DNA of 64,000 nucleotides from Rubripirellula sp. (GCA_965216875.1 OZ244207.1:544001-608000); one strand, 5' to 3'; positions 48,699-64,000 are shown, numbered from the stretch's first letter. Made by a program: numbers and translations. The notes: generated by a model not told the origin, from the sequence alone.

Positions 48699-48702
48699 CA
48701 AG

Positions 48703-49308: not shown

Positions 49309-49383
49309 CGCCGAGGACAGGAATCGAACCTGTGTTTGCCTGGTTCAGAGCCAGGTGCAACGACCAACAGTTGCCGCCTCGGT
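49309..49383 (-). tRNA. tRNA-Gln(CUG)
   Basis: CCGAGG/CCTCGG, CCTGG CTCTGAA CCAGG, ACAGG TTCGATT CCTGT. Confidence 0.8.
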
Positions 49384-49421
49384 GTACGGAAGTTTGAAGT
49401 CGGAAGTTCGAAGTTTGAAAG

Positions 49422-49493
49422 CACGGGTGGCAGGATTCGAACCTGCATACCACTGCTTCAAAGGCAGCTGGCTTACCGTTAGCCAACACCCGA
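49422..49493 (-). tRNA. tRNA-Gln(UUG)
   Basis: CGGGTG/CACCCG, loop CTTTGAA, GCAGG TTCGAAT CCTGC. Confidence 0.85.
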
Positions 49494-49548
49494 GTGTCTG
49501 CGTTGAACGTTTCAAACTTCTAGCTTCCCACTTCTAACTTCCGAAAGG

Positions 49549-49621
49549 CTCCGGCGGATGGGCTCGAACCATCAATCGTCTCCTTAACAGGGAGCCGCCC
49601 TACCGATTGGGCCACACCGGA
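49549..49621 (-). tRNA. tRNA-Asn(GUU)
   Basis: TCCGGTG/CGCCGGA-G, loop CTGTTAA. Confidence 0.87.
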
Positions 49622-49627
49622 GTATCA

Positions 49628-50048
49628 TCAGGCTTCAGGGATCAGGTTTCAGACTTCAGGATCTAGGGGCGAAGATGAGAGACTACAGAAAACTGCGTGC
49701 GTTCGAATTGGCGGATCAGCTTGCAATCGCTGTCTACAAGTGCACGTCATCTTTCCCGAAAGAGGAAATGTTCGGACTGACATCTCAACTTCGACGCGCC
49801 GCTGTCTCCGCACCATCCAACATCGTCGAAGGAAGTGCAAAGTCATCACAAGCTGACTATGTTCGATTCCTCGAAATCTCCTACGGCTCTGTTTGCGAGG
49901 TTGAATATCAGCTGTCACTCGCACAACGCCTGTCGTATCTCGATGAACAAACAGCAACGGAGGTGATCGGCGTCGCCAATGAAGCCGGACGAGTACTCAA
50001 CGGCCTTCTTCGCTCACTGAAGTCTGACTCCTGAAGCCTGAAGTCTGA
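49628..50048 (+). mobile_element. Heptamer inverted-repeat cassette carrying four-helix-bundle gene 2
   Basis: TCAGRCT-type IR 49628-49659 / 50017-50048 (27/32 match); right arm overlaps the gene's stop codon. Confidence 0.6.
49675..50034 (+). CDS. Four-helix bundle protein (23S rRNA IVS protein family)
   Basis: MRDYRKLRAF, FPKEEMFGLTSQLRRAAVSAPSNIVEG, FLEISYGSVCEVEYQL. Confidence 0.93.
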   Translation: MRDYRKLRAFELADQLAIAVYKCTSSFPKEEMFGLTSQLRRAAVSAPSNIVEGSAKSSQADYVRFLEISYGSVCEVEYQLSLAQRLSYLDEQTATEVIGVANEAGRVLNGLLRSLKSDS

Positions 50049-50051
50049 CCA

Positions 50052-50122
50052 AGCGCCCAGCGAGAATTGAACTCGCGTCTTCTGCATGGCAAGCAGATGG
50101 GTTACCACTACACCATGGGCGC
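50052..50122 (-). tRNA. tRNA-Gly(GCC)
   Basis: GCGCCCA/TGGGCGC-T, TCTGC TTGCCAT GCAGA. Confidence 0.88.
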
Positions 50123-50212
50123 AAAATGCATCACAACCAGATTGTCAAAGATCGGATCAGGCTTCAGGTCTCAGTCTTCAGACTTCAGTTTTCTTGCTGA
50201 AGTCTGACAAAG

Positions 50213-50283
50213 AGCACCGAGTCGGATTCGAACCGACGTCCCCTCGTTACGACGGAGGGATCTTCCCACTAGACGATCAGTGC
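50213..50283 (-). tRNA. tRNA-Thr(CGU)
   Basis: GCACTGA/TCGGTGC, loop GTCGTAA (31:39 mismatch), GTCGG TTCGAAT CCGAC. Confidence 0.72.
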
Positions 50284-50427
50284 TGGAGTCAGGTGTCAGG
50301 CTCCAGGCTCCAGGTTCCAGGTACTAGGCTTCAGGTTTGAGGTTTCTGTTCCTTGCTGAAGTCTGAAGTCTGAAGTCTGAAGTCTGAAGCCTGAAGCCTG
50401 AAGCCTGAAGCCTAAAGTCTGCCCAAG

Positions 50428-50500
50428 TGGGACCGGTGAGAATCGAACTCACATGAGTCGGTTTAAGAGACCGGTGCATTACCTTGTCTGCCACAATCCC
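50428..50500 (-). tRNA. tRNA-Lys(CUU)
   Basis: GGGATTG/CGGTCCC-A, loop CTCTTAA. Confidence 0.85.
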
Positions 50501-50531
50501 AAATTGTGTTTTTGTCGTTGATTCGTTTCAG

Positions 50532-50604
50532 TCGGCGTGGCGGGAATTGAACCCGCGACCGTCGCCTTATAAGGACGCCGCTCTCACCCCTGAGCTACAC
50601 GCCG
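50532..50604 (-). tRNA. tRNA-Ile(UAU)
   Basis: CGGCGTG/CACGCCG-A, canonical D arm, loop CTTATAA. Confidence 0.82.
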
Positions 50605-50616
50605 ATGTGTAGCAAG

Positions 50617-50637
50617 TGGGGCCGGAGAGATTCGAAC
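50617..50637 (-). pseudogene. Displaced 3' end of the split tRNA-Lys(UUU) (att junction)
   Basis: Minus strand GTTCGAATCTCTCCGGCCCCA completes the T-stem (GAGAG) and acceptor (GGGGTTG) of the 5' part at 62716-62773. Confidence 0.85.
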
Positions 50638-50676
50638 CTGTCTCGTTGCCAACGGAACTTCTCACTGACTCTGGAG

Positions 50677-50748
50677 TAGGATTGCAGGGACTCGAACCCC
50701 GACCCAACCGGTTAAAAGCCGGTGATGCTGCCGTAACACCTCAATCCC
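50677..50748 (-). tRNA. tRNA-Lys(UUU) carried by the element
   Basis: GGGATTG/CAATCCT-A, ACCGG CTTTTAA CCGGT, CGGGG TTCGAGT CCCTG. Confidence 0.85.
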
Positions 50749-50788
50749 AAATAAAAAACCCAGTGCCGTCGTGTGACACCGGGTTTTG
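50749..50788 (-). terminator. Intrinsic terminator-like hairpin immediately upstream of the element tRNA-Lys
   Basis: Minus strand AAAACCCGGTGTC-ACACGAC-GGCACTGGGTTTTTTATTT. Confidence 0.55.
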
Positions 50789-51086
50789 TTGTTTCCAGCA
50801 ACAAAACGCCAACGTCACCGACGAAGCGGATACCAATCCAATCCATTCGCACCGCAACTGCGGGCGAGCGAATCGCTATTCAGATTCTGTTGTGTCGATT
50901 GCATTGGTATTGACCGCTACTTCTCTCGGTTTAGTGATTTTCGTTTGTCGTCCAATCTCAGGCCGACGGAACAATAGACCAGCGAGCGAAAAGAAGGTTC
51001 GCGTCGCTGACAGGAATAGAGATGCTTGGGGCGATATGGTTATTTCACGGTTTTCTGAAAACCGGGCAAAGTCACTTGGTAGCTGC

Positions 51087-52061
51087 TCATTCAGCCTCAT
51101 CATTCGGATCGTAGTCCAGCGATTGGAGATTCATCCCTTCAAGCAATGGTCGCGGATACCAAGCAGCGATACCAAACGCGTTTCCGTCGGTGTCAAAGCA
51201 TCCAGGACCGCCTAGCTTGTAGCCTGACTCGAAGTCTGGGTCGGCTTCAAATCGGCTAAGTATCACCCCAAGAAAAAAAGGCATGTGGGGGACTTCCATG
51301 ATCCGAAGGTCGAATCGAAAACTAAACTCACCCTGAAACGGGAGTTCGCGTCGAAGGATGTAGTTGCCGTTTGTTGTCGTTGCCGACACCAACTCAGACA
51401 CGGGGAACATAAAGAATTCCAGATTGTATGCCGTTGACGTTGGCAACCCGGCATACAAGGGATGATGCCAGAGGTCACCGGGTCGAAACGTCTCAGCGTG
51501 TTTGCCTCCGCGTTCGACGAATTTATCAAGCCCTTGAAATATCAATCCGCAAAGCGGTCCAGAGGTGACGTTCACAGAAGTGGGGGCTTTCAGGCCAACA
51601 CCCCTTATTTGCTCAAGTTCCCGGTTGTACCCAGACACAATCGGTCGACCGGAACTCGAAAACTGAACAAAGCCGCCCATGTGAAGGCTTAGCTTGACCC
51701 GGTCGCTGACAGTAAAAGTGGCGGATTCGTGTAGCTTCTGTATCGACTGCTTCTGCGAATAGTCGTAGGGGATTCTTAGGACCAGTCCATCGGTTACCGG
51801 ATGATATGGGACAGACAAATGAAATCCGTCCCTCAAGAATCCGATACGCGCAATAAGCCGCTCACGACCGTCTTCGCCTTCAACGGCAACACGGTAGCCT
51901 TCCCCAATGTGCTTTCTCACTTTTCGAGAACTTTGACCGACCGCCTCTACAGCGCGGCGCAGGCGAGATTTGGATACTCCGATCGCACCCGCGTAATACT
52001 GCAAAAGCCAATCCTCATTGGGATCGATATTGTCTGGGATATCCGAAATGATCATGCGCAC
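51087..52061 (-). CDS. Hypothetical protein with N-terminal DUF3606-like domain
   Basis: IDPNEDWLLQYYAGAIGVSKSRLRRAVEAVG resembles DUF3606; the rest is unrecognised. Confidence 0.65.
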   Translation of the reverse strand: MRMIISDIPDNIDPNEDWLLQYYAGAIGVSKSRLRRAVEAVGQSSRKVRKHIGEGYRVAVEGEDGRERLIARIGFLRDGFHLSVPYHPVTDGLVLRIPYDYSQKQSIQKLHESATFTVSDRVKLSLHMGGFVQFSSSGRPIVSGYNRELEQIRGVGLKAPTSVNVTSGPLCGLIFQGLDKFVERGGKHAETFRPGDLWHHPLYAGLPTSTAYNLEFFMFPVSELVSATTTNGNYILRRELPFQGEFSFRFDLRIMEVPHMPFFLGVILSRFEADPDFESGYKLGGPGCFDTDGNAFGIAAWYPRPLLEGMNLQSLDYDPNDEAE

Positions 52062-52081
52062 GAACCAAATAACTCAGAGTA

Positions 52082-52672
52082 CTAGAGACCGACCATGCGA
52101 TTCCAGTCAGCAACATACATCTCGATCCGATGAAACTCACCAGGCAACAGCAGTCGGTTGTGAGCCATAAAGTTCCGGGCCTTTTCAAGCTCGTCAAATC
52201 GTTGCTTCAACCAATGCTGCGTCGGAATCAGGTCTGAGAAATCCTCCCAGTTGTTGAGGATGATGTCGGCAAGGTGTCCAAATTGCACGAATCCCAGAAC
52301 GTCACGCTTCTGGCCTTCGAGCCACGAGTTGGTGTTCGCGTCTTCCTGACGTGCTTCCGCAAACTCACGGATCTTCTTTGTCACCTTATTGTCCCACCAA
52401 TCATCTCCATACTGCTCTTGGAGGCGTTGCGTGATAAGGGATCGCACAGAATTCTCGAAGCAGTAGACCAAGGAATAGAGTCGTCCCATTTGTAACGCTT
52501 CATTGCGAAGGTCAATGCTAAAGGGATCCAGTGTTTCGTTGAGCAACGCGCGCTCGGATTCAGTCGTGTCGGCCCCAACACGGATGCCGGCAGATCGAAA
52601 GTGTTCCGCGTCCGCTTCGAACATCAGACCTCGAAACATCCAGTCCCTAACTTCCTTTCGTTCAATCTTCAA
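52082..52672 (-). CDS. Swt1-like HEPN domain protein (putative RNase)
   Basis: YCFENSVRSLI, YGDDWW, LEKARNFMAHN (Rx4H). Confidence 0.85.
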   Translation of the reverse strand: MKIERKEVRDWMFRGLMFEADAEHFRSAGIRVGADTTESERALLNETLDPFSIDLRNEALQMGRLYSLVYCFENSVRSLITQRLQEQYGDDWWDNKVTKKIREFAEARQEDANTNSWLEGQKRDVLGFVQFGHLADIILNNWEDFSDLIPTQHWLKQRFDELEKARNFMAHNRLLLPGEFHRIEMYVADWNRMVGL

Positions 52673-53297
52673 TTAAGTGCTCCTTCAGTGATTTAAAGAT
52701 GGCATTATAGACTTCGATATCTTTGGTAGGCGGAAGGTGTATTTCGATGTTGTATCGAAGTCCACCAAACGCCGGCATTTGAACTTGGCTTGTGTCCGCC
52801 TTTGCTTCCTTGTCTGGCGATTCCCCGCGGTCTTCAGTTCCTTGATTCTCATCACCCGTTGGTGCCCCATTTCGTCTTGCGGCATCAAGGTCTGCGAGGT
52901 CGAGCAAAGCAAAAAACGTTTTTGCTTGCTCTTTCGCGACCCTATCGGATGCGTTGTGAAATGACTTAAATTTTCCCTCAATCGAAGCGCGATCCGCTTC
53001 CGTAGGGTTCTCATTGACGTGGAACACCTCTTCGTACGCTTCGTGGAGTGCTTCTGCCATCACCTCACGTGATCGCGATTTGTCGCGGTAGTCATGGTAG
53101 CGCTGCGTTGGACTGCCATCGCCGGTCAAAAACCCGAGGTCCTTAAGCACAGGGATGATCCCCATGTCATTGCTGCTCTTGAAGCCAATCCCCTTGAGAT
53201 GTGCCTGGGAGAATTTCTCTGGCGCGGTACCCTCGATGATCTTTTGCATGATCGCGTGCAGGTTTTTGGTGCTGGTCATGTAGCGTGAAGTCAACAA
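52662..53297 (-). CDS. DUF5343-like protein
   Basis: PEKFSQAHLKGIGFKSSND, LGFLTGDGSPTQRY, C-terminal YNIEIHLPPTKDIEVYNAIFKSLKEHL; overlaps HEPN gene. Confidence 0.75.
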   Translation of the reverse strand: MLTSRYMTSTKNLHAIMQKIIEGTAPEKFSQAHLKGIGFKSSNDMGIIPVLKDLGFLTGDGSPTQRYHDYRDKSRSREVMAEALHEAYEEVFHVNENPTEADRASIEGKFKSFHNASDRVAKEQAKTFFALLDLADLDAARRNGAPTGDENQGTEDRGESPDKEAKADTSQVQMPAFGGLRYNIEIHLPPTKDIEVYNAIFKSLKEHLIED

Positions 53298-53576
53298 TTT
53301 GATCTCCCTTCTCGTTCTCGTGGTATGGAGGGATTGAATAACTATTCAGCGAGTACAGACCCAGTCTACATTTATCTGGTTCGCGCCCGCAATCGACCGC
53401 GTATGGCGGGAGATGGCCCGGATATCGACCACTCCCCGTCAATGGATTTAGAACGAGCGTCGATTCTAAATCGTCGGGTTAGGTAGCGGCGGCTGCCGTG
53501 ATGGATCGACGTTCGGCATTGGCTTTCTGCTGGGCGTCGATGCATCGGCCCATTCCCCAGCCGGAAAGCCATTCTG

Positions 53577-54953
53577 ATGATCGAAAACCCATTCTTGCGT
53601 GACATGGAATCCTATCTCTACACCGTAGGCTTTCCGCCGCCTGACTTCCTTGACTTCGCGGATGCGATGGTGCTGCCCAGAATCGACCTGCCTTTCAAGC
53701 AAGCCAGCAAGATCAAGGAAAAGCGATGGGAAGCGACCTGCTGCGCCCACAACCTGATCTACGCGGGGCTCGTCAATCGGACGGTTGCGGACTCCCGTGA
53801 TGGCAAAGGCAAATCACGAGCTCGCGTCTGGGACGCGATCATCAAGGCCGGATTCGCTGATAGATGTACTGGGAGCGAGCAATCCGGCAAAGTGACACGC
53901 TATTACCCTCGTGCCAAACTGCTGCGGCTTCGGAAGCAGTGGAAATTGGATTTGCTGATCGACCTTCAGCTAGAACGCAACACTGAACGTCCACACGATC
54001 CAACGAAGCAAGCGTTGGTCCTCCTGCATAGCAGCAAGGTCGATCCAGTCACAGGGCTGAAGTTGGACGAGTTGGATCAAAAGCAACCGCTGTCTTTTCA
54101 CGACTGGGCAAAGAACGAAGCCGGACCACGGGGGATGCAGAGCGGACTTGAGTACGTACAAGCGATGGAGGATCTGATCGAACGAATCAACCGATCCAAC
54201 CTGCGGCATTCCTGGCAGGCATTTCACGTCAATCCCATGAGCAGCAAGGAAACGGCATTTCAACCCAATTCATGTGTCAGACAGATTCACGTCGGTGAGA
54301 TGTTTCGGGGCACGCGACTCTACTCGTGGTCACTGCTGTCCGGCCAGAGCCTACCGAAAGAAGATCGCAAGCGAATGCTGATCGATGGCGAGCCGGTAGC
54401 CGAGTTTGACTATTCAGGTATGGCGACGCGGATGCTTTACCACCGAACACGTCTGAGAGGGCCCAAGGGCGACGTGTACAAGCCGGACGAATTGTTCCCA
54501 AGGTTTTACGCGTTCGAACCTAGCCCCGAAACGGCCGAGATCGTGCGTGAATTCGGGAAACGGGCCACGAACATCTGCTGGAACGTTTCCAGCCGAGCCA
54601 ATGCAAATTCGGCGATCAGCAAACTGATTACCGATCATCCCGATCGCGACCTGATCGAATCCGTTTTGAAATCGGAGGGGATGAAACGCACCGATGTCGT
54701 GACACGCATCCAAGCAGCCCATCCGAAACTGGCCGAGGATTTCTTTTCAGGAGTCGGAATCGAACTGATGACCGTTGACGGCAGCATTATGCTCCGCATT
54801 CTCGAAACGTTTGCCGACGCCGATAAGCCAGTGCTGGGCATTCACGATTCCATCGTGGTACGCGAATCAGACCGCAGGTTTGCCAGGCGAACGATGAAAG
54901 ACGCTTACCGCCGATTCATGCTTTTTGAGCCCGTGATCAAACGTGTCTATTAG
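53577..54953 (+). CDS. Stand-alone PolA-superfamily polymerase (TV-Pol-like)
   Basis: RLY...QSLPKEDRKRMLIDGEPVAEFDYS (motif A), LMTVDGSIM, VLGIHDSIVV (motif C); no exonuclease domains evident. Confidence 0.65.
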   Translation: MIENPFLRDMESYLYTVGFPPPDFLDFADAMVLPRIDLPFKQASKIKEKRWEATCCAHNLIYAGLVNRTVADSRDGKGKSRARVWDAIIKAGFADRCTGSEQSGKVTRYYPRAKLLRLRKQWKLDLLIDLQLERNTERPHDPTKQALVLLHSSKVDPVTGLKLDELDQKQPLSFHDWAKNEAGPRGMQSGLEYVQAMEDLIERINRSNLRHSWQAFHVNPMSSKETAFQPNSCVRQIHVGEMFRGTRLYSWSLLSGQSLPKEDRKRMLIDGEPVAEFDYSGMATRMLYHRTRLRGPKGDVYKPDELFPRFYAFEPSPETAEIVREFGKRATNICWNVSSRANANSAISKLITDHPDRDLIESVLKSEGMKRTDVVTRIQAAHPKLAEDFFSGVGIELMTVDGSIMLRILETFADADKPVLGIHDSIVVRESDRRFARRTMKDAYRRFMLFEPVIKRVY

Positions 54954-55472
54954 GGTCTTCGTAACTCGTTGCAAAAGCCCGAGTTACGAGTTTTTGGCGG
55001 GGTAATATAGGAATAGAAATCCCGAATAGAAAACCCAACCGCCCCCCGCCCCTCCCTCCGCCCTCCCCAAAGGAGGGCGGAAAGGGAGGAAGCGGAACGC
55101 GGAAACGGATGAATAAGAAACGAACCCAACGTTAGACGTGTTACGGTTGCACGGTAGACGTCATCAGCACGTGGCACGTCCTAGACGCTGTCGGAAGTCG
55201 TAGACCCAACGTCCTGCGTCGGTACGCCTTTTGGTGCCTTATTGGGCGTTCGTGCGTAAAAAAAGATGAACTTTTTTAAGTTGTGCCGCAGCAAGCGTTT
55301 GCGTCAACGCAATATGCGCAATTGACGCGTTTCTGAGCGCATCAACGTGTTTTTCTGGGCGCATAACTCAGGGTATCCAGCGATATAGATGTGCACGGGA
55401 TGATTCATCGTCGAATTGCCCATACACGAACTCGGATCGTGTAGAGCTCTACACGCTAAGACTGAGAGCATC

Positions 55473-56144
55473 ATGCCAAGGTATCGAACGCCCCATTGGA
55501 CCGACGGACGAATCGCGAAGCTGCATGGAAGTGCACTAACCAGACGGTTCGCCAATCTTGCCGAGGTCGCGAATAAGTACCACAGGATATGCGCTGAGAA
55601 TGAGCAGTCAGCTTTGGATTGCGCCAAAAAAGTAGGTGATGCTCTGACCGAGGCCAAGCGTCGGTGTGGTCATCGCAAGAAGTGGTCGAAGTGGCGCAGC
55701 GACAACTTCGCTGGATCAAAAGAGACTTCATGCCACTACATGCGAATCGCTCGTGAATGGAACAATCCCAAAATCCGCGAGGCGATGGCACGCGGTGAGA
55801 TCAAGAGTATCAACCAGTTTCTCGCGGTGCTTCGCAGAAAGGGAAATCCCAAATCGCAAACGACAGCGGAACAACGACACGTAATCAGGCTATTCACGAA
55901 ACTTGCCAAAGATCTGAACTGGGCCGACCAAAACCGTTTGGCAATGCATAGCACGGCCCAGGACGTAATGCCCAAATTGAGTGATTTTTTGCTAGAAGTA
56001 CTGAAGGGGTATCCAGTTCCACATCTGGTCGAGGTTTACCCAGGAGAGTACGAGATCAACTACTACGATGACGGCGATCAAGCTGAGGTGACCATGCCTC
56101 CTGGTATCAAACCACGCACCCAAAAAAGAGCCAAAAACCGGTAA
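55473..56144 (+). CDS. DUF3102-like phage/MGE DNA-binding protein
   Basis: ALDCAKKVGDALTEAKRRCGHRKKWSKW...SKETSCHYMRIA. Confidence 0.65.
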   Translation: MPRYRTPHWTDGRIAKLHGSALTRRFANLAEVANKYHRICAENEQSALDCAKKVGDALTEAKRRCGHRKKWSKWRSDNFAGSKETSCHYMRIAREWNNPKIREAMARGEIKSINQFLAVLRRKGNPKSQTTAEQRHVIRLFTKLAKDLNWADQNRLAMHSTAQDVMPKLSDFLLEVLKGYPVPHLVEVYPGEYEINYYDDGDQAEVTMPPGIKPRTQKRAKNR

Positions 56145-56208
56145 TGGCTAAGGCTACCTATCAGCCGGATTCCTTTTCCATGATTGGTCCTGTGTCTTGG
56201 AATGTGGA

Positions 56209-57279
56209 TCAGGAGTTCTGATAAACTGCACGGCCAACCTTCAGCACATCGCGGCGATAGTCGCGATCCCACCTTGAAAAGCGCTCCATAGTTCTTTCGT
56301 CTTGGTGTGCAGCGAGAACAAGAACAGCACACCAATGGTCGACATCACCCATCGCATGTTTATGTGAATCAGCGAACATCTCGAAAACTTCTTTTGCGCG
56401 AGGCACGGATTTTCTCAATACCGCGTCCAACTCGCCGAGGGTCGAGATTTCGGTTGCTTTGCACGCTGCAAGCAGATCTTCAGAGTCAGGCTGGGCTCTT
56501 GCCGCTTTGAGCTTACTCTTGGACACCGCGTCCATAACATCACGCACAATGCTCGCTTCTTCGCAGTACTGCTCGATCGAAATCGCGTTAATTTCAATCT
56601 TCAGTGTTTTGTCCGCCAACTGCTCGGACACTTCCTTAGCAAGTGATTCTTGCTGCGCCTTTAAGCTCGTAAACTCGTCGTCGGCTAACTCAAACAACCC
56701 TGCAAGTCTCATGAGACGTCGCCGAAACTTGGATGGAACGTCAGATTCGCGCTTGTATTGCAAATGATGGGAAATTGCCGCCCATGCGTGCTGAAGAACT
56801 GTCCTTACCTGAATTTCGCACACCAATCCCACGAACGCATCCCATTCTGGCAACTTCGCCCGAGCATCGTTGAGCGATACGACTAGGTGGACGGACAGAT
56901 ACCCAAACTGATCTGCATCCAATTCCGACGATTTATCAATGCTGCGTGCGTCATCAACCTCGAACTCGTTCCGCAGAATCTTGGTAACTTCATCTACGTC
57001 CTCTTGGTAGTACAGAATCACGCGAGCGCCTGCGAGGTCGGGCAACTCATCAAGCGGGTTCGTGTAGGATTTGCCGGGTCGCTGAATCTTTTCCGCAAAA
57101 CTCTCAATACTCTTTGCACGTGATTCAGTGGTGTGGTGCGGGATCGAGTGTTTCTTTATCAGTTGGAGAATCAGCAATTCGATGCGGCGAGCAAATTCTT
57201 GAATTCGAGGTTGCATCATGCCATAGTCGGCGACCAATTGATCATGATCCGTTGCATTTCTCCGGCGTTTTTTTCCCAT
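56209..57279 (-). CDS. RelA/SpoT-domain (small alarmone synthetase-like) protein
   Basis: SRAKSIESFAEK, DLAGARVI, GYLSVHLVV, EIQVRTVLQHAWAAISHHLQYK. Confidence 0.88.
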   Translation of the reverse strand: MGKKRRRNATDHDQLVADYGMMQPRIQEFARRIELLILQLIKKHSIPHHTTESRAKSIESFAEKIQRPGKSYTNPLDELPDLAGARVILYYQEDVDEVTKILRNEFEVDDARSIDKSSELDADQFGYLSVHLVVSLNDARAKLPEWDAFVGLVCEIQVRTVLQHAWAAISHHLQYKRESDVPSKFRRRLMRLAGLFELADDEFTSLKAQQESLAKEVSEQLADKTLKIEINAISIEQYCEEASIVRDVMDAVSKSKLKAARAQPDSEDLLAACKATEISTLGELDAVLRKSVPRAKEVFEMFADSHKHAMGDVDHWCAVLVLAAHQDERTMERFSRWDRDYRRDVLKVGRAVYQNS

Positions 57280-57698
57280 AGATCCTTTGCTCAACAAGAG
57301 ACTGCAGTTAGGCCCACGGCGGGGATACCAATACTTGTTCCGCTGATGGTCGTAATGTAACAGGGTGCGGCTATAGATGCGAAAGCGCTACGCTGGGGTA
57401 GGGATCGCAGTGGCTCAGTATCAGTATCCGGCAGCGGCACCGCATTCCGCACCGTGATTCACGGGGTCAGCGTCATCCGTGATCCGCTCACGACGATCTA
57501 TAGATGAAACTGGCCATCGGTTCGGAGCTGCGCTAGAAAACGGGTCCAGGTACGCGAGAGATATTCGCGGCCAACGGGAGCGACGCCTAACGCTTTGCCT
57601 TCCGTATTCGCCCGAAGCGTCGCATAGGAAATGCAAACGCCGTAGAGCGCGATTTAGAACGCCTACGCGACGTGTTCTCCAACGAAAGGAGCCAACCG

Positions 57699-58322
57699 AT
57701 GCCGAAACAGAAACCCGTTGCGATCTATGCCCGTGTCAGCTCGCAGAAGCAGGACACCGCCAGCCAGTTGCCGGACCTGAAACGCTGGGCCGATGCCCAA
57801 GACGCGGACGTGCTGTGGTTCGAGGACGAAGTTAGCGGCACGACGATGGACCGACCGCAATGGTCTGAGGTCGCCAAGCTGATTAGCGCTCGAAGGATCT
57901 CAGCCGTTGTTGTTTGGCGGTTGGATCGTCTTGGACGTAACGTCAGCGGGCTTTCCAGTTTGTTCGATGAGATGCGGGCCAAGGGCGTTGATCTGGTCAG
58001 CCTGAAAGACGGTCTGACGTTATCGACGCCAGCCGGACGATTGATGGCTAACGTCCTCGCCAGCGTTGCACAGTTTGAAACGGAGATCAGAGCCGAGCGC
58101 GTGTTGGCTGGTCAGGCGAAGGCGAAAGCGAACGGCAAGACGTGGGGCGGAAGCAAGCCAGGTGTGCGGAAGAAAGTAACGCAGGAACAGATCGATGCGA
58201 TTGAGATGCTGTACGACGAGGAGATGTCTACTGCCGCCATCGCACGAACGGTGAAGCTCGGACGAAACACCGTAGCCAGCGTTATTCGCGAGATTCGAGA
58301 AAACTCCCCTTTTCGTAAATGA
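57699..58322 (+). CDS. Small serine resolvase/invertase with C-terminal HTH
   Basis: IYARVSS, VWRLDRLGRN, TPAGRLMANVLASVAQFE. Confidence 0.92.
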   Translation: MPKQKPVAIYARVSSQKQDTASQLPDLKRWADAQDADVLWFEDEVSGTTMDRPQWSEVAKLISARRISAVVVWRLDRLGRNVSGLSSLFDEMRAKGVDLVSLKDGLTLSTPAGRLMANVLASVAQFETEIRAERVLAGQAKAKANGKTWGGSKPGVRKKVTQEQIDAIEMLYDEEMSTAAIARTVKLGRNTVASVIREIRENSPFRK

Positions 58323-58362
58323 ATGGTGGTTGGCGGCCTGATGCTTGTCATACGTTCCGCGT

Positions 58363-58737
58363 ATGACGAGAGCCAAGAGCCACCGAAACGAACTACCTTC
58401 CAAATACGAGCGGGGATTCCTGAAAGGACTGGACCGACGTACGCAAATCTACGCGCGGCTGACTGCGATACACGATGAAATCGTGGACGATCTGGGCGGC
58501 AAGGATGGGCTATCGCATACGAAGCTCGCATTGATCGAACGCTTCGTATTTCTTGAAGCCGTGATCCAGAAGATGGAACTGGACATGGCCAAGTCCAAGA
58601 CGCTCAATGGCGAGGAGCTTAATCGCTGGATCCAAGGCCTGAACTCAATGACGGGTCTGGCCAAAACGATCGGCTTGGAACGCCGCCAACGAGCGGTCAA
58701 CGTTCGCGACTACGCCAAGAAAAGGGCCGCGTCATGA
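58363..58737 (+). CDS. Putative terminase small subunit
   Basis: Small helical protein overlapping the TerL start (ATGA); call rests mainly on position. Confidence 0.5.
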   Translation: MTRAKSHRNELPSKYERGFLKGLDRRTQIYARLTAIHDEIVDDLGGKDGLSHTKLALIERFVFLEAVIQKMELDMAKSKTLNGEELNRWIQGLNSMTGLAKTIGLERRQRAVNVRDYAKKRAAS

Positions 58738-60137
58738 ATATCGTCCAAGCGATTAAGGATGAAAACCTGATCCAGCCTTTCTTGGGCGATGACTTGAGTT
58801 CTTGGCGTCCATGGGTATCGGCCCTCCGTGTGATGTATGGGTTGCCGTTGTCACGGTCCGATCGCATCCGAGCGAGGAAATGCACCGGACGCGATCCGGC
58901 AGGGATGCCGGCGGAGGGCTTTGATACTGCTCTTTTCCTGACCGGCAGACGTAGCGGCAAGTCGCGTATTGCATCGGTGATCGGTGCATACGAGGCGATC
59001 CTGGCGGGTCACGAGGATCGGCTGTCCAAGGGTGAACAAGGCGTCGTGGCGGTCTGCGCTCCAACGAAACACCAAGCCCAGATCGTGAAAAGCTATCTGC
59101 GTGCGGTGTTTGATTGCGGCTTCCTTCGCCACGAGGTGAGCAGCGATACCAGCGACGGGTTCAGCCTGAACAACGGCAACCGCATCACGATTCTCGCTGG
59201 CGACTGGCGAACGATTCGCGGGTTCACGTTGATCGCCGCCATCATCGATGAAGCTTGCTTTTTCGGATACGACGCAGAGTCAAAAGTCCGCAGTGATACG
59301 GAGCTCGTGCGGGCGATCAAACCGGCACTGGCAACGGTGGGCGGCAAGCTGATCTGTATCAGTAGCCCATACGCCAAGCAAGGCTATTGCTTCCAGCAGA
59401 CGAAGAAGCAGCACGGCAACGACAAAGGCAAAAACCTTGTCTGGTGGGCCCCATCGCAAACGATGAACCCCACGCTTCCGCAAAAGGCAATCGATGACGC
59501 CTTGGCGGAGGATTACGCAGCGGCACGTTCTGAGTATTTCGCCGAATTCCGTGATGACGTGGCCGCGTACATTTCCCGCGAAGTCGTGGAACGGTTGGTC
59601 GTGTCAGGTCGCACGCGACTATTGCCCAGACCAGATACGCGTTACTTCGCTTTCGCTGATATGAGCGGTGGGCGTGGTGACGCATCCGTGTTGGCGATTG
59701 CCCATCGCGAGGACGGCAAGATTGTCCTCGATTCCATCGTTGAATTCAAACCGCCATTTAACCCGATCGACGTGATTGAAACGTTCTGCGACGAGCTTCG
59801 GCGTTACCGATGCGGCAGGGTGATGGGCGACAACTACGCGGCTGAATTCGTCTGCCGGACCTTCAATGGTTTCGGCGTGCGCTACATCAAATGCGAGAAG
59901 CCCAAAAGCGTCCTGTACGCCGAGCTTCTGCCTCACTTATGCGCCGACGGTCTGAGTCTTCTGGATCACCCTCCGATACTAGATCAGATAGCCGGTTTAG
60001 AACGCCGTACACGAAGCGGAGGGCGTGACATTATCGACCACCGACCGGGAGCCCATGACGACGTTGCCAACGCGGTAGCGGGCGTGGTCGTGGCGGCCAC
60101 CAAACGCGGTCGCAAATTCGGAGCCATTTGCAATTAG
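58734..60137 (+). CDS. Terminase large subunit-like protein
   Basis: Walker A GRRSGKS, Walker B AIIDE, ISSP, nuclease DMSGGRGD and HDDVANA. Confidence 0.82.
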   Translation: MNIVQAIKDENLIQPFLGDDLSSWRPWVSALRVMYGLPLSRSDRIRARKCTGRDPAGMPAEGFDTALFLTGRRSGKSRIASVIGAYEAILAGHEDRLSKGEQGVVAVCAPTKHQAQIVKSYLRAVFDCGFLRHEVSSDTSDGFSLNNGNRITILAGDWRTIRGFTLIAAIIDEACFFGYDAESKVRSDTELVRAIKPALATVGGKLICISSPYAKQGYCFQQTKKQHGNDKGKNLVWWAPSQTMNPTLPQKAIDDALAEDYAAARSEYFAEFRDDVAAYISREVVERLVVSGRTRLLPRPDTRYFAFADMSGGRGDASVLAIAHREDGKIVLDSIVEFKPPFNPIDVIETFCDELRRYRCGRVMGDNYAAEFVCRTFNGFGVRYIKCEKPKSVLYAELLPHLCADGLSLLDHPPILDQIAGLERRTRSGGRDIIDHRPGAHDDVANAVAGVVVAATKRGRKFGAICN

Positions 60138-60146
60138 GAGCATGGA

Positions 60147-60659
60147 ATGAACGACAACGAGTTTCGCCGACAGAAGCTTGCCGATTACGAAGCGAGGCAC
60201 AGCAAGCCGGATCATCCGCCCCTGCTCGTCGGTGGCTGGGTGTATTACCCGGATGGAGCCGCACGTGAAAAGAATCCTTGGGCTGGTGCTTGGTGTGAGC
60301 CTGATCCTGATCCGCTAAGTCGAGCGAAAACGATTTTGTTCTATCACGAGAAGCGGTTGGAGTTCGCGGTTACGGAATTCCAGTATCTCAAGAGCAGCCT
60401 GAAAGCTCAGGCCAAGTCCGAATACCTGGGCCGTCCCTGTCCGCCGAATAGCCTGGTTCAACGCGAAGGCATGCGGAAGCTCAAAGACATGAAAAGCAGT
60501 ATCGAGGTCCTTCAACGGCGATTTGAAAAGGCCGAGCAGGAGCTGAAAGAGATCGAAGACAACCACCCATCGTCGAGACGGCATCAACAGCGACGTGATG
60601 CCGAACACCGACAGACTGCCGAGGAGTTCGTCGCTGAAATCAACGACATCGAGATTTGA
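60147..60659 (+). CDS. Hypothetical coiled-coil protein
   Basis: AGGAG upstream; follows TerL in an operon. Confidence 0.65.
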   Translation: MNDNEFRRQKLADYEARHSKPDHPPLLVGGWVYYPDGAAREKNPWAGAWCEPDPDPLSRAKTILFYHEKRLEFAVTEFQYLKSSLKAQAKSEYLGRPCPPNSLVQREGMRKLKDMKSSIEVLQRRFEKAEQELKEIEDNHPSSRRHQQRRDAEHRQTAEEFVAEINDIEI

Positions 60660-61092
60660 AAGGATCGATCCAATGACGTACGTACGCAACGTTAGACAAT
60701 CGCCGAAACCTTTGGAGCGCCCACCGGCTTTGTTTATTGATGAGACCATCTGTGGACCCCGTGCTTCAGGTCGGGAACTGTCTCGCCCATCGCTTCAGTC
60801 GGGACGGCAAGCGACCGGGAGTATCGGGATCGCCATGAATCAGCTTTCGCCTCCCGCGAGGCTTCCCAGTGCCCCGAGGTTTTTCAGTTAGATGCGATCA
60901 CGGCTGCGCATTCGGGGGTGTCCTCTGTGGTTCGTCTCATCTACCCGGAAGTGCCACGCCGCGAGGTGTGCGCTAGCGTAGCCGTAGGGCGGCAAGGTTG
61001 GAGCTTGATCACTCCGATCGGACCAACTAACTGCACGACGGTTGGTCAGCCGCCCTTTTCTCTCCCTGTGTCGTGCGAAAGGTCGTGCAACT

Positions 61093-62739
61093 ATGTCCAA
61101 GAAGCGCAAACGCCTTATCAAGGCTGTTGCTTACCTCCGTCGCTCTACCACAGACCAAGAGGCGAGCCTCGACGAGCAACGTGCAACCATCATCGCCTAC
61201 GCCAAAGCGAACGGATACAGAATCATCCGTTGGTACGAAGACGACGGCATAAGCGGCGATGATACGGAAAAGCGTGTCGGTTTCCTTCGCATGATCGACG
61301 ATGCCACGTCTGGCGAATTCAAATTCATTCTGTGCTGGGACCAGGATCGCTTTGGGCGGTTCGACAGTTTAGAAGCCGGTTACTACATCACACCAATCCG
61401 AAACGCCGGAGTTCAACTGGTAACGGTGAACGAAGGGCCGATTGACTGGAACAACTTTGCCGACCGTTTGACCTACAGCATCAAACAGGAAGGCAAACAC
61501 CAGTTCCTCCGCGACCTATCACGCAATGTCCTGCGAGGGCAAAGCGAGGCGGCGAAGCAAGGAAGTTGGATCGGAAGCCCGCCGTACGGTTATCTCCTAG
61601 AGGGCAACTGCAAGAACAAACGACTGGTCGTTGACGAGCCCAGAATGGCGATCGTGCGACGGTTGTTCAAAGAATACGTAGACGATGGACGTTCGCTTTC
61701 AGAGATTGCCAAACGCCTCACGGACGAAGGCGAGCCAACGCCTAAAGGTAAAAGGCAATGGCGTGGTGACACCGTGAGATTCCTTTTGGCGAATCCGGCC
61801 TACATCGGCACGTTCCGGTACAACACTGCCGGGAGCTCCAAGTACCACAGTTTCAGGCGTGGAGCAATTGCACAAGGCGGTTACCGAGGACGCAAGCCAG
61901 TAGAGGATTGGGTCGTGATTCCGAATCACCACCCAGCCGAGATCGACAAGGACGCCTTCGATCGTGCTCAAGCGATGATCGCAAAGAACCGAAACGGGCA
62001 GACCAATTATCCAGCAGGCGACAATCCGTACATCTTCAGCGGCGTGTTGCGTTGTGGTCGATGCGGTGCGTTGATGATTGGCGACGATGGGAACCGCTAT
62101 CGATGCGGCAATCGTCGAGCGAAGAAACGGTGTTTGGGAACGGTCGTGCGTGAGGACCATCTGCTGGAACATCTGACGCGTACGCTCAACAAGCATTTGA
62201 TCGACGATGATCCTGAAATGCTGGCCGCTGAATGGTCTGCCGATAGATGGGAACTGCGGCCAGAGGATGTCCCAAAGACGTTCGAGCGAATGCGTCGAAT
62301 CATGAAAGGAAACGACGGCAGGGATTTCGCGAGGGACGCGAAGCGACTGCGGGCCAAGATTGCAAAGATTGATACACAGCTCGCAAAGCTGCGTCGCAAC
62401 ATCGGGTACGTCGATGATCCGGCAACCATTACCGTCATCTCAGAGGAGATTGAGAAGCACGAAGAAGAACGCGGTACATTGCAGCGGCAGATCGAATCGC
62501 AGCCAACGGAGATCAACGTCAACTACGCGGTGCTGGACCTGATCGGGGACATGATGCACCTGCATTCCGGCAACAAGGCCGTAGTGCGTCGCGTGGTCCG
62601 AGAGGTCGATCGGATCACCGTTCACACGCATCGACGCGGAAAGGGGAATGGCACGCGACACCGCCTCAAGTCGATAGAAATCACGTGGCTAGGAGTGGGG
62701 CCGACTGCGAGTAAGTCGAACTCTCGCCGAACGGATTAA
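61093..62739 (+). CDS. Large serine recombinase (integrase)
   Basis: AYLRRST catalytic Ser, DRFGR, recombinase domain (PPYGY, NPAYIG), zinc ribbon CGRCG...C...C, coiled coil; C-terminus crosses the att core. Confidence 0.93.
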   Translation: MSKKRKRLIKAVAYLRRSTTDQEASLDEQRATIIAYAKANGYRIIRWYEDDGISGDDTEKRVGFLRMIDDATSGEFKFILCWDQDRFGRFDSLEAGYYITPIRNAGVQLVTVNEGPIDWNNFADRLTYSIKQEGKHQFLRDLSRNVLRGQSEAAKQGSWIGSPPYGYLLEGNCKNKRLVVDEPRMAIVRRLFKEYVDDGRSLSEIAKRLTDEGEPTPKGKRQWRGDTVRFLLANPAYIGTFRYNTAGSSKYHSFRRGAIAQGGYRGRKPVEDWVVIPNHHPAEIDKDAFDRAQAMIAKNRNGQTNYPAGDNPYIFSGVLRCGRCGALMIGDDGNRYRCGNRRAKKRCLGTVVREDHLLEHLTRTLNKHLIDDDPEMLAAEWSADRWELRPEDVPKTFERMRRIMKGNDGRDFARDAKRLRAKIAKIDTQLAKLRRNIGYVDDPATITVISEEIEKHEEERGTLQRQIESQPTEINVNYAVLDLIGDMMHLHSGNKAVVRRVVREVDRITVHTHRRGKGNGTRHRLKSIEITWLGVGPTASKSNSRRTD

Positions 62740-62773
62740 AAGTCCGTCATGCTGCCAGTTACACCACAACCCC
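62696..62773 (-). pseudogene. 5' part of host tRNA-Lys(UUU) fused to an element-derived 3' end
   Basis: GGGGTTG...ACGGA CTTTTAA TCCGT...GAGAG TTCGACT, then TACTCGCAGT CGGCCCC-A. Confidence 0.8.
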
Positions 62774-62881
62774 AAAGTAGGCTTTAGGTATGAGGCGTTT
62801 AGAATTTAGGCATGACAGCTGGACGCTTCGCATCGTTTCTCTCCTTTCAAACTTCACTCTTCCAGCTTCAAACTTCCGCAG

Positions 62882-62953
62882 TGGTAGCCCTGGGAATTGA
62901 ACTCAGCGCGACTCGGTTATCAGCCGAGTTTGGGCAACCAGCCCTCGACTACC
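62882..62953 (-). tRNA. tRNA-Ile(GAU)
   Basis: GGTAGTC/GGCTACC-A, CTCGG CTGATAA CCGAG; atypical D arm. Confidence 0.75.
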
Positions 62954-63064
62954 GTTTGTCAGGCGTCAGGAATCAGGCCTCCGACTTCAGGAGAACTTCC
63001 TGAATCCTGAATCCTGAATCCTGAATCCTGACGCCTGACGCCTGAAGTCTGACTCCTGCATTAG

Positions 63065-63137
63065 TCGGGTGTGTCGGAATCGAACCGCTCTCCATCGTCC
63101 CAAACGAAGTGTGCACAACCATTACACTTCACGCCCG
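63065..63137 (-). tRNA. tRNA-Pro(UGG), partly degenerate
   Basis: CGGG../..CCCG-A, loop TTTGGGA; mismatches in T and acceptor stems. Confidence 0.6.
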
Positions 63138-63186
63138 ATCGTCGACTTCTGACGCCTGATACCTGAAGCCTGAAGTCTGTATAAAT

Positions 63187-63822
63187 GAGTCGGCTTTAGC
63201 GCAAGCTCTATTCCGACTCGGTGATGGCCCTCGAATCAACGCCATTGGCTCCTCGAGGTCTGCACACGCGCGTGTTAAACGCTTCATCACCTTCACCCCT
63301 GTCGTTGATGTCTCCATCGCCCAACAGCAGGCAGTAGTGCAACGAGTCTTCTGGGTTAGGTCCCGAGCCTCCCGTCGGAGACTCGCACCTCGCTCGATCA
63401 GCTTTCTACGTCGGGACGTAGTCCACTGATCCCCTTTCGGGCAGCTCGACCACCTTTCGGCGACCGATGTAGGCACTTCGACTCTGTTACACGTATGACT
63501 TGCTGCCACCTCCCGAAGGAGTCGGCAACTTCCCGAACACTTTATGTGTCATTCAACCCTGACAAGGTTGCGACTGGAACGTTCCACGATAGCCATACAA
63601 ATCCGTGGTCTTTCAGGCAGCACTCCGCTGGTGGGCCAGCGACTCACGCCCTCAGTTACTTGACAGCTTCCAGTACCCACGCGGTTACCTACCGGCTTCA
63701 TCGCCAAGGCTACGACGGATGAACGCCGCTCCTAGGTCAGCCTTTCGTTTATCTCTCTTGCGAGAGCCGGCCACCCGTTCCAGGGCAAACCGGTTTTACG
63801 TCCGAACGACATCACGGACCTA
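63187..63822 (-). ncRNA. Large ornate structured ncRNA, possibly GOLLD-like
   Basis: No credible ORF; many minus-strand stems capped by GAAA, GCAA, GAGA and UUCG tetraloops; long-range closing helices. Confidence 0.7.
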
Positions 63823-63940
63823 TGATTTTAGAAGTGGGAAGCTAGAGGTATGAAAACCTCGCTCGCCCAACTTCAATTGTTCTGTCAATGCATTTTCCTG
63901 CTTTCAAACTTCACCCTTCACTCTTCGAACTTCCGAAAGG

Positions 63941-64000
63941 TGGGCCAGGAGGAACTCGAATCCCCGTCTGCGGTGCTTCAAACCGCCGCTAAACCATCTC
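63941..64000 (-). tRNA. tRNA-Phe(GAA), 5' end outside window
   Basis: GCGGT TTGAAGC ACCGC; 3' CTGGCCC-A. Confidence 0.75.

Follow-up and report, generated by a model that had tools for sequence, protein, structure and literature searches.

A large serine recombinase element splits a tRNA-Lys(UUU) gene within a supernumerary tRNA array of Rubripirellula sp.

Large serine recombinases (LSRs) are known from prophages and islands such as phiC31, Bxb1, A118 and the SCCmec Ccr type. They catalyse integration between attP and attB, and excision requires a directionality factor. In the current model of their attachment sites, the distal (zinc-ribbon) motif of attP is displaced outwards by about 5 bp relative to that of attB. 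PICI and their relatives are phage satellites with an integrase, packaging genes and a variable defence region, and with no recognisable virion genes. Serine recombinases were summarised as targeting protein-coding genes and tyrosine integrases as targeting tRNAs in PMC7168690. Tycheposons of Prochlorococcus were outlined as a set of 937, of which 27 have a large serine recombinase in place of the tyrosine recombinase (bioRxiv 10.1101/2020.12.28.424599). L-arrays are defined as at least 20 tRNA genes at a density of at least 2 per kb, and Planctomycetes are listed among the phyla having them (PMC4758250). The mobile-type genes linked to L-arrays in that account were homing endonucleases only. 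No published account of an LSR targeting tRNA arrays was found in a literature search.

The window, that is the whole stretch of 64,000 nucleotides analysed from Rubripirellula sp. (GCA_965216875.1 OZ244207.1:544001-608000), contains an integrative element of 12,084 bp (window 50636-62717) flanked on either side by one half of a tRNA-Lys(UUU) gene. The element is present as a single copy in the genome studied (G000). The features of its ends, in window positions, are as follows.

62773 to 62716, minus strand: 5' part of the split tRNA-Lys(UUU), from the acceptor as far as the T-stem, with a 95% match to the copy in array B
50617 to 50637, minus strand: 3' remnant of the split tRNA-Lys(UUU), T-loop to discriminator; it forms the left junction's host arm and matches exactly the corresponding 3' end in the intact array-B copy
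50634 to 50635, no strand: predicted crossover dinucleotide GA at the left junction, equivalent to U55-C56 when read on the tRNA strand and central in each of the five junction pairs
62718 to 62719, no strand: predicted GA crossover dinucleotide of the right junction, from junction comparison
50636 to 50665, no strand: predicted right half of attP, forming the element arm at the left junction and symmetric with the opposite element arm at 15 of 30 positions
62688 to 62717, no strand: predicted left half of attP, forming the element arm at the right junction, within the LSR 3' end, from junction comparison
61042 to 62739, plus strand: LSR of 565 aa, from domains and alignment; the ORF continues past the right junction, where the complement of the tRNA anticodon loop supplies its stop TAA
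50676 to 50748 (ARAGORN) or 50677 to 50748 (Rfam), minus strand: intact element-borne tRNA-Lys(UUU), 51.4 bits to RF00005, 40 nt inside the left junction
50755 to 50787, minus strand: terminator-like hairpin, 6 nt upstream of the carried tRNA and with a similar counterpart in G259

The sequence TCGAAC was common to both junctions (62716-62721 and 50632-50637). Joining the halves by script at the central GA gave a canonical 74-nt tRNA-Lys(ttt) in ARAGORN, identical at 70 of 73 positions to the intact copy in array B (genome coordinates 632195-632268), 25 kb away. ARAGORN also called a tRNA-Lys at the right-junction chimera (62699-62772). The acceptor and T stems of this chimera were mispaired and its score of 24.8 bits was under the 29-bit gathering score of Rfam RF00005. 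The junctions had only TCGAAC in common, with no directly repeated 3' part of the tRNA from which an intact gene could be regenerated. No match to the phage-integrase family of tyrosine recombinases was found among the 14 ORFs scanned.

The preliminary description of this DNA had placed a tRNA-Lys(UUU) split around a shared TCGAAC core here, and its coordinates were exact to the base. Its further claims, that a serine-integrase element had cut the gene in the T-loop without restoring it and that a second, intact tRNA-Lys(UUU) lay about 40 bp inside the opposite end, agreed with the Resolvase, Recombinase and Zn_ribbon_recom domains of the 565-aa ORF, with the mispaired chimera and with the calls of both ARAGORN and Rfam. 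It had also suggested a search for the uninterrupted site in relatives. In relatives, Ile(tat) and Lys(ttt) adjoined without interruption, with one Lys(ttt) per locus, at 6 of the 11 fetched array loci and in three more arrays. As relatives lacking the element have one Lys(UUU) there, the whole tRNA-Lys(UUU) is a property of the element and not of the locus.

The LSR had a resolvase domain (PF00239, E 3.2e-25), with a Recombinase domain (PF07508, E 3.4e-23) and a zinc ribbon (PF13408, E 3.4e-9) both C-terminal to this catalytic domain. Residues Y31, R33 and S35 of the catalytic region were invariant in all five aligned clade members. Against NCBIfam the LSR gave weak matches to XisF and CcrA/B/C, all under their cut-offs. 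Both ends were known for five elements (G000, G030, G259, G341 and G345). The two junctions of the G341 element had GA as their sole identity, and the crossover was therefore placed at U55-C56. The arms of the predicted attP were symmetric at 15-20 of 30 positions in all five elements, compared to 3-9 of 30 for the host arms. Near the centre, host and element arms agreed at 35 of 80 positions at zero shift compared to 17-24 of 80 at shifts of +1 to +5. An outward shift of the distal motifs by 5 bp was clear only in G000 (10/14 and 7/14) and was weak over all ten arms (48 of 140 compared to 27-47 of 140 at other shifts). Judged from the junctions, the element would have a 2-bp crossover, no target-site duplication and an imperfectly palindromic attP, as is characteristic of LSR integration.

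ARAGORN predicted 99 tRNA genes genome-wide, comprising 17 at 591000-608012 (array A), 31 at 628016-632638 (array B) and 51 scattered genes (genome coordinates). The split gene is one of the 48 called in the two supernumerary arrays. The parts of array A on either side of the element are as follows, in window positions.

47000 to 50604, minus strand: downstream part, 13 ARAGORN genes from Arg(tcg) to Ile(tat) (ARAGORN, Rfam)
62881 to 64000, minus strand: upstream part, with Ile(gat), a tRNA of 32.8 bits at 63066-63136 and Phe(gaa), which runs past the window end (ARAGORN, Rfam)

Array B has 31 genes in 4.6 kb and is an L-array by the published definition. In array A, approximately 5 kb long without the element, ARAGORN called 17 genes, counting both the carried gene and the chimera, so that by ARAGORN alone it has fewer than 20. 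Array B is supernumerary to the scattered set, which on reading of the ARAGORN list covers all 20 amino acids and includes a Lys(ttt) at 4944104. Two other Lys(UUU) genes are thus kept by G000, this scattered gene and the intact array copy at 632195.

LSR matches at E<=1e-90 were found in 8 of 401 family genomes. Six matches were full length (46-49% identity by search, 43-47% in the tree alignment) and in all six the LSR 3' end abutted the 5' part of an array tRNA. The five homologous elements in other genera all lie in the T-loop of an array tRNA. The target was Lys(UUU) in G000, G259 and G371, Gly(GCC) in G030, Trp(CCA) in G341 and Lys(CUU) in G345. This sample is six elements, one per genus, so that statistics on targets and cargo are thin, and the related genomes are not independent. 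At three more distant LSR loci (L061-L063) no tRNA was found within the fetched stretch. In an order-wide search tRNAs were present at only one of 14 scanned LSR loci, and that locus was a clade member. The LSR was not found in two genomes of the same genus, and a blastn comparison with the 20-kb array region of G002 gave no match to the element body. LSR ORFs were intact in all six elements; the stops flagged by the search in G030 and G259 fall upstream of the start.

The remaining genes of the element in G000, in window positions, are as follows.

51087 to 52061, minus strand: DUF3606-domain protein, cargo, from domain search
52082 to 52672, minus strand: Swt1-like HEPN protein matching PDC-M34B (E 1.1e-69), candidate defence
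52662 to 53297, minus strand: DUF5343 protein matching PDC-M34A (E 3.2e-76), candidate defence
53577 to 54953, plus strand: 458-aa protein matching phrog_4756, with a 46% identical homolog in the G030 element
55416 to 56144, plus strand: DUF3102 protein, from domain search, with homologs in the G030 and G341 elements
56209 to 57297, minus strand: RelA/SpoT-type small alarmone-synthetase-like protein matching PDC-S33, candidate defence
57672 to 58322, plus strand: small serine recombinase (invertase/resolvase with HTH), from domains and homology, core, in 6 of 6 elements
58345 to 58737, plus strand: 130-aa terminase small-subunit-like (TerS-like) protein, core; a lead only, from an Atlas match of 0.90 to a Terminase_4/Terminase_6 cluster
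58734 to 60137, plus strand: terminase large-subunit-like (TerL-like) protein, core, phrog_2 E 3.6e-24, 49-61% identical in 6 of 6 elements
60147 to 60659, plus strand: conserved 170-aa protein, core, from homology

The core shared by all six elements comprised the invertase, the TerS-like, TerL-like and 170-aa proteins and the LSR. The TerL-like motifs GRRSGKS (Walker A), DE and HDD were invariant. Cargo varied, with an MmeI-like restriction-modification (RM) gene in G259, putAbiC in G341 and a Toprim/AAA_25 protein only in G345. Among the 11 ORFs scanned in the G000 copy, none was recognised as a gene for capsid, portal, tail, lysis or replication functions. A directionality factor was not identified either.

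A carried tRNA was present in three of the five elements with a known left end. The carried anticodon and target were UUU and Lys(UUU) in G000, CUU and Lys(UUU) in G259, and UUU and Gly(GCC) in G030. None was found at E<=0.1 in G341 and G345. All three carriers have the tRNA in the same orientation as the array, at a distance of 40-66 nt from the junction. The cloverleaf was preserved, with compensatory change in 10 of 22 pairs among seven related genes. The carried tRNAs grouped with type-2 array Lys(CUU) genes, to which they were closer than to the split Lys(UUU). The search for a promoter-like site of the carried tRNA was negative. In the LSR tree the G000 and G259 elements, which target Lys(UUU), were basal.

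The preliminary description proposed the carried tRNA as compensation for the loss of the split gene, and suggested checking whether homologous integrases carry a tRNA matching their target. They do not do so consistently, as the tRNA is mismatched in G030 and G259 and absent in G341 and G345. Compensation was consequently not upheld as a rule, given also the redundant Lys(UUU) genes, and the carried tRNA-Lys does not look like a purpose-built replacement. As an ancestral trait it is possible, from the LSR tree and the co-orientation. The tree would fit an ancestral element that had Lys(UUU) as its target and a tRNA-Lys among its cargo, which leaves room for the replacement idea. With four Lys tRNAs among the six targets, a link between Lys target and Lys cargo may exist.

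The stronger claim, that the carried tRNA-Lys(UUU) is a functional substitute for the destroyed gene, a serine-integrase counterpart of 3'-end duplication by which the array keeps its full Lys set, is unlikely. The anticodons of the carried and split tRNAs agree in G000, but the G030 element sits in Gly(GCC) and carries Lys(UUU) beside an intact array Lys(UUU). The G259 element sits in Lys(UUU) and carries Lys(CUU), which should not read AAA under standard wobble rules; one short query found no second array-type Lys(UUU) in that genome. The orientation and position of the gene in the three carriers and its structural constraint would suit a working tRNA, while the terminator-like hairpin immediately upstream, the lack of a recognised promoter-like site and the affinity to array Lys(CUU) argue against it. 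The basal position of G000 and G259 makes an ancestor with a Lys(UUU) target and Lys cargo parsimonious; two elements have no carried tRNA, and G000 has two other Lys(UUU) genes. It is also doubtful that an array-specialised, terminase-bearing and defence-carrying lineage hops between tRNA species via the near-universal U55-C56 and ancestrally brought an array-type tRNA-Lys as a patch for the gene it destroyed. If true, the ancestral patch would be a new solution to a problem for which tyrosine integrases rely on duplication of the tRNA 3' end.

The carried tRNA-Lys could instead serve the element as a spare or nuclease-resistant tRNA against anticodon nucleases of the host or of phages, or against its own HEPN or RelA/SpoT-type cargo. 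Anticodon nucleases known to attack tRNA-Lys include PrrC and PARIS, rescuing tRNA-Lys genes are carried by some phages, and the 3' ends of tRNAs can be modified by toxic small alarmone synthetases. The Swt1-like HEPN and RelA/SpoT-type proteins match candidate defence models, and between the carried tRNA and the scattered Lys(UUU) there are differences throughout, D-arm and anticodon stem included. This role is nonetheless improbable. The tRNA also occurs with other cargo, the MmeI-like RM in G259 and, in G030, genes without a homolog of the G000 HEPN or RelA/SpoT genes, and so is not tied to these. The AAA fraction of Lys codons is 0.44 in the element, equal to the 0.45 of the host. It is likewise improbable that the element is a fixed, immobile remnant of a degraded prophage and its tRNA-Lys functionless array DNA trapped by a past rearrangement. 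The unrecognised virion, lysis and replication genes and the sparse family (6 of 401 genomes, one per genus) would fit such a remnant. The intact LSR ORFs, the invariant TerL-like motifs at 49-61% identity and the compensatory changes in the carried tRNA do not. Homologous elements at four tRNA species require repeated site-specific insertion and, together with the absence of the LSR from two genomes of the same genus and of the element body from the G002 array region, suggest that the element may be mobile at present.

The reading preferred here, which is probable, is that of an LSR element in a redundant array tRNA, belonging to a family that changes target and carrying a tRNA-Lys unmatched to that target. 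The LSR would have inserted the element into tRNA-Lys(UUU) of the supernumerary array by strand exchange at GA, U55-C56 of the T-loop. Since a serine recombinase needs only 2-bp identity, no tRNA end would be duplicated and the target gene would be destroyed. The host would tolerate this loss because the array tRNAs are redundant with the scattered set and the second array. The family, found here in six genera of one planctomycete family, has a common core and variable candidate anti-phage defence cargo, and its LSRs would have been retargeted among array tRNAs with the conserved T-loop as the common site centre. The carried tRNA-Lys may be a structurally constrained gene inherited with part of the lineage, related to the type-2 array Lys(CUU). 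What is new is the use of redundant tRNA arrays as landing sites by LSR integrative elements.

In gene content the elements resemble PICI and other phage satellites, being of approximately 10-12 kb with an integrase, packaging-like genes and a variable defence region and lacking recognised virion genes. Unlike PICI, they have both a TerS-like and a TerL-like gene, and no replication/primase module was recognised in the G000 copy. On the TerL-like match and the TerS lead they are possibly phage satellites. With tyrosine-integrase islands and prophages they have in common the tRNA gene as landing site and the accessory or defence cargo, but they differ in having no tyrosine integrase and no restoring 3'-end duplication, and in a predicted 2-bp crossover inside the T-loop. 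Tycheposons, as outlined in their description, are likewise tRNA-associated, some being PICI-like with a packaging gene and some having small serine recombinases. In that description partial tRNAs flank them and a full-length tRNA adjoins, so that the site is regenerated, which sets the present element apart, and their sites are seven island-associated single tRNA genes rather than genes inside arrays (bioRxiv 10.1101/2020.12.28.424599). The Resolvase-Recombinase-Zn-ribbon layout, the imperfectly palindromic element-side site around 2 bp and the target split without duplication are those of LSR prophages and islands. Unlike in these, the target is the T-loop of array tRNA genes, shifted among four tRNA species. 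The arrays resemble L-arrays, as these were characterised, in being dense, co-oriented and supernumerary and in adding isodecoder redundancy (PMC4758250). Unlike the L-arrays of that account, those here host a dedicated family of LSR elements.

The window contains 16 tRNA genes as predicted by ARAGORN, which lie between 47000 and 62953, every one on the minus strand. The preliminary description had placed a tRNA-Lys(UUU) in two pieces at the ends of an integrative element, with a second, intact tRNA-Lys(UUU) inside the element. All three were located in the window as follows:

62773..62716, minus strand: 5' part of the split tRNA-Lys(UUU)
50637..50617, minus strand: 3' part of the split tRNA-Lys(UUU)
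50676-50748: carried tRNA-Lys(ttt), 51.4 bits (Rfam)

Both pieces agreed with the coordinates of that description and the intact tRNA-Lys(ttt) lies 40 nt inside the left junction. The TCGAAC core was present at both junctions (62716-62721 and 50632-50637). Joining the pieces by script at the central GA gave a canonical 74-nt tRNA-Lys(ttt). The rejoined tRNA matched 70 of the 73 positions of another, unbroken tRNA-Lys(ttt) at 632195-632268 in the same genome, 25 kb downstream, and two of the three differences lie on opposite strands of the anticodon stem. The split tRNA is real and well above chance. At the right junction the tRNA 5' part and the integrase 3' end form a chimera (62699-62772) which ARAGORN called as tRNA-Lys(ttt). 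Its acceptor and T stems are mispaired and it scored 24.8 bits compared to the Rfam tRNA gathering score of 29, so the split gene is broken and not restored. This chimera could inflate tRNA counts in automatic annotation.

The element is 12,084 bp from GA to GA and is single-copy in the Rubripirellula sp. genome (G000). The 565-aa ORF at the right end has Resolvase, Recombinase and Zn_ribbon_recom domains and is therefore a large serine recombinase (LSR), which bears out the serine-integrase nature first proposed for the element. The LSR frame crosses the right junction and its stop codon, TAA, is the complement of the tRNA anticodon loop. Upstream of the LSR are a 170-aa protein and then a terminase large-subunit-like (TerL-like) protein, which matched phrog_2 (E 3.6e-24) and in which the GRRSGKS, DE, and HDD motifs are invariant. 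Next are a 130-aa protein, at most a lead for a terminase small subunit (TerS-like), and a small serine invertase. Cargo genes fill the left half and encode a RelA/SpoT-type protein (PDC-S33 model), DUF3102 and DUF3606 proteins, and a 458-aa protein of unassigned function. A further cargo pair, DUF5343 and Swt1-like HEPN, matched PDC-M34A/B with E values of about 1e-70. The LSR was not found in the two same-genus genomes, and a blastn comparison with the 20-kb array region of G002, a relative, gave no match to the element body.

The G000 genome is a single contig of 8.26 Mb, of which the window covers 544001-608000, with 99 tRNA genes predicted by ARAGORN. Two supernumerary tRNA arrays were present at these contig positions:

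591000-608012: array A, 17 tRNA genes, holds the element
628016-632638: array B, 31 tRNA genes

The remaining 51 tRNA genes are scattered and cover all 20 amino acids, as read by eye from the list. For lysine, the scattered set includes Lys(ttt) at 4944104 and Lys(ctt) at 3751896. In the arrays the D-stem of the Lys genes is unusual, containing two G-U pairs, and these genes differ along their whole length from the scattered ones. Long supernumerary arrays are known, and Planctomycetes are among the phyla having them according to PMC8421152. The array flanks are ordinary planctomycete chromosomal genes. A prophage origin for the whole region was rejected, as the flanks and inter-array stretch hold DUF1501, PSCyt/PSD1, TPP enzyme, SelO, and ECF sigma/FecR genes. 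The inter-array stretch also holds a McrBC-like pair, an MrcB_N/AAA_5 protein and a DUF2357/PD-(D/E)XK protein, at G000 620740-626309 (fetched locus L069, 12740-18309).

The array order Lys(ctt), Ile(tat), Lys(ttt), Ile(gat)/Pro ... Phe is common in the family. Window 50400-50640 was matched in 21 of 36 same-family genomes. Of 11 fetched loci, 6 have an intact Lys(ttt) directly after Ile(tat) and no second Lys(ttt), and three further intact arrays were found in relatives. As these arrays have a single, uninterrupted Lys(ttt), contiguous sites without the element exist and the additional Lys(UUU) of the G000 locus is the element's own. The findings named in the preliminary description as evidence against its reading, namely both Lys(UUU) genes at this locus in relatives or the lack of an empty site, were not seen in the relatives.

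Other features of the arrays were observed. The tRNA-Ile with a UAU anticodon (window 50531-50604, 64.9 bits) lies beside Lys genes in many relatives and was also present in loci L010-L013, L015, L016, L018, and L020. Array B has Met(cat) at the matching position. The array tRNA-Lys(UUU) position of L010 (genome G016, ~1690-1780) is occupied by a Lys-like gene without an ARAGORN call, its anticodon region replaced by a ~33-nt insert; an insertion footprint, an intron or decay are possible. Tandem heptamers (CCTGAAT/CCTGACG) were seen at window ~62990-63050 and in array spacers (e.g., 48660-48700). Spacer repeats of the CTTCAAACTTC-type recur between array tRNAs, also in the array of G341. In several relatives the genome has two or three paralogous arrays (L188 and L190 in G345, L187 in G371, L192 in G002), some of them with over 20 tRNA genes within 3 kb. 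Elsewhere in G000 ARAGORN called a CUA-anticodon tRNA labelled Pyl (3282034-3282109) and a tRNA whose anticodon, tttc, has four bases (3442059-3442132).

LSR matches at E<=1e-90 were found in 8 of 401 family genomes, and the clade has six full-length members. Their identity to the G000 query was 46-49% by search and 43-47% by alignment; clade LSRs aligned to each other with 46-60% identity. Each of the six has the 3' end of its LSR directly next to a tRNA 5' part, in an array on the other strand. Three more distant LSR loci, including a 42% paralog in G000, had no tRNA within the fetched stretch.

Interrupted and carried tRNAs of the six full-length clade members
G000: interrupted Lys(UUU); carried Lys(UUU)
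G259: interrupted Lys(UUU); carried Lys(CUU)
G371: interrupted Lys(UUU); left end off contig
G030: interrupted Gly(GCC); carried Lys(UUU)
G341: interrupted Trp(CCA); carried, none found
G345: interrupted Lys(CUU); carried, none found

The family has switched among tRNA species. The integrase ORF crosses the right junction in 6/6 elements (window 62716-62739; ~3190-3215 in L022; ~3130-3160 in L058). For the three Lys(UUU) targets the TAA comes from the complement of the anticodon loop, so the C-terminal tail of the integrase would differ between integrated and excised forms. Both ends were located for five elements, with lengths of 10.0-12.1 kb. The left end of the G371 element was not found on its cut contig and the matches were intact arrays elsewhere. 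The invertase, TerS-like, TerL-like, 170-aa protein, and LSR genes form a core common to all six. The variable cargo includes an MmeI-like restriction-modification gene (G259), putAbiC (G341), and a Toprim/AAA_25 protein with a Mutator-family transposase (G345). This transposase gene (L066, 12640-13857) adjoins a split invertase gene and looks like an insertion sequence inside the element.

A second sampling around G030 added no clade member in 60 genomes, and the LSR search in genome contigs gave three loci, none informative. In viral contigs 35 loci were matched (best identity 37-43%) with no tRNA beside the LSR in any; four contained a tRNA, always far from the match. Among the best 80 loci of 445 TerL relatives in metagenome contigs no clade-type LSR was found (tblastn identity at most 30%). 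A similar element was observed between two parts of a tRNA array in the metagenome contig L087 (1592-13454). This element has an invertase, a TerL-like gene (59% identity) and a DUF3102 protein, and its 541-aa serine recombinase is a different one. Arrays may also be used by other recombinase lineages.

The two junctions of the G341 element have only GA in common, which places the crossover at this dinucleotide, corresponding to U55-C56 on the tRNA strand. GA was central in each of the five junction pairs. On the element side the inferred sites are imperfectly palindromic, with 15-20 of 30 positions symmetric compared to 3-9 of 30 for the host sites, which are not palindromes. Host and element sites were alike beside the centre, with 35 of 80 positions matching at zero shift. 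In the published LSR model the distal motifs are shifted +5 bp outward in attP relative to attB. This shift was clear in G000 and weak overall.

A carried tRNA was present in three of the five elements with a known left end, and none was found at E<=0.1 in G341 and G345. The three carried tRNAs share 69-89% identity and in all carriers have the orientation of the array. They group with array tRNA-Lys(CUU) genes of a second type (G018, G371, G345), the very type interrupted by the G345 element. Seven such genes, when aligned, retained the cloverleaf, with 10 of 22 pairs showing compensatory changes, indicating that the carried gene is under tRNA-like constraint. In G000 a terminator-like hairpin precedes the carried tRNA by 6 nt and a similar one was found in G259. 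A promoter scan around the carried tRNA gave no promoter-like sites. Codon usage was rejected as an explanation for the carried gene, the element having an AAA fraction of 0.44 compared to 0.45 for the host.

The preliminary description stands in its structural part, while its proposal that the carried tRNA-Lys compensates for the split gene finds no support as a general rule, given the mismatches between target and cargo and the two elements without a tRNA. Replacement of the split gene is unlikely to be the role of the carried tRNA. In favour of replacement, Lys tRNAs are four of the six targets, and the carried gene is well placed and oriented for co-expression with the array. The two elements of G000 and G259, both targeting Lys(UUU), are also basal in the LSR tree, which makes an ancestor that targeted Lys(UUU) and carried a tRNA-Lys parsimonious, in a tree whose root rests on G465, G090, and the G000 paralog since the outgroup rows G573 and G234 were mis-extracted (287 and 267 aa). 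However, target and cargo differ in amino acid in G030 and in anticodon in G259, and G341 and G345 carry no tRNA at all. G000 itself has two other Lys(UUU) genes, and extra Lys decoding is not called for by its codon usage. A role in resisting attack on tRNA-Lys appears improbable; it draws on the HEPN and RelA/SpoT cargo, particular to the G000 copy, and on general biological background. Whatever role the carried tRNA-Lys may have, the broken tRNA is apparently tolerable because targets are chosen in redundant arrays.

The family-level pattern is more interesting than compensation: serine-integrase, terminase-bearing elements carrying candidate defence genes land in the T-loops of redundant array tRNAs. 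The supernumerary arrays thereby gain a tangible role, that of landing pads for mobile defence cargo. The related integrases, whose ~40-bp tRNA targets are akin without being the same, form a natural series for the study of specificity change. The junction chimera is a warning for annotation as it can be called as a tRNA. The element is probably still mobile.

Tyrosine integrases are known to use tRNA genes and to repair their target, and serine integrases to interrupt protein-coding genes. This serine-integrase clade uses tRNA T-loops and leaves the gene broken, in contrast to the target-repairing tyrosine integrases. By domain architecture and junction anatomy the element is of the large serine recombinase type and works like a serine-integrase prophage or island. 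It differs from a tRNA-restoring island in lacking both a tyrosine integrase and a 3' repeat, and its target gene is not regenerated. PMC7168690 likewise describes serine recombinases at protein-coding genes and tyrosine integrases at tRNAs. No serine recombinase targeting tRNA T-loops or tRNA arrays was found in the literature searched, most subscription journals being outside its scope. The element resembles phage satellites in size, packaging genes and defence cargo, but differs in having no recognised helper phage, replication module or virion gene; a satellite lifestyle is plausible. Among described elements at tRNA genes that in some cases have a large serine recombinase, the tycheposons are the nearest, 27 of 937 of them having one according to the preprint (bioRxiv 10.1101/2020.12.28.424599). 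Tycheposons are described there with partial tRNA repeats at single tRNA genes, whereas the family found here resides in arrays.
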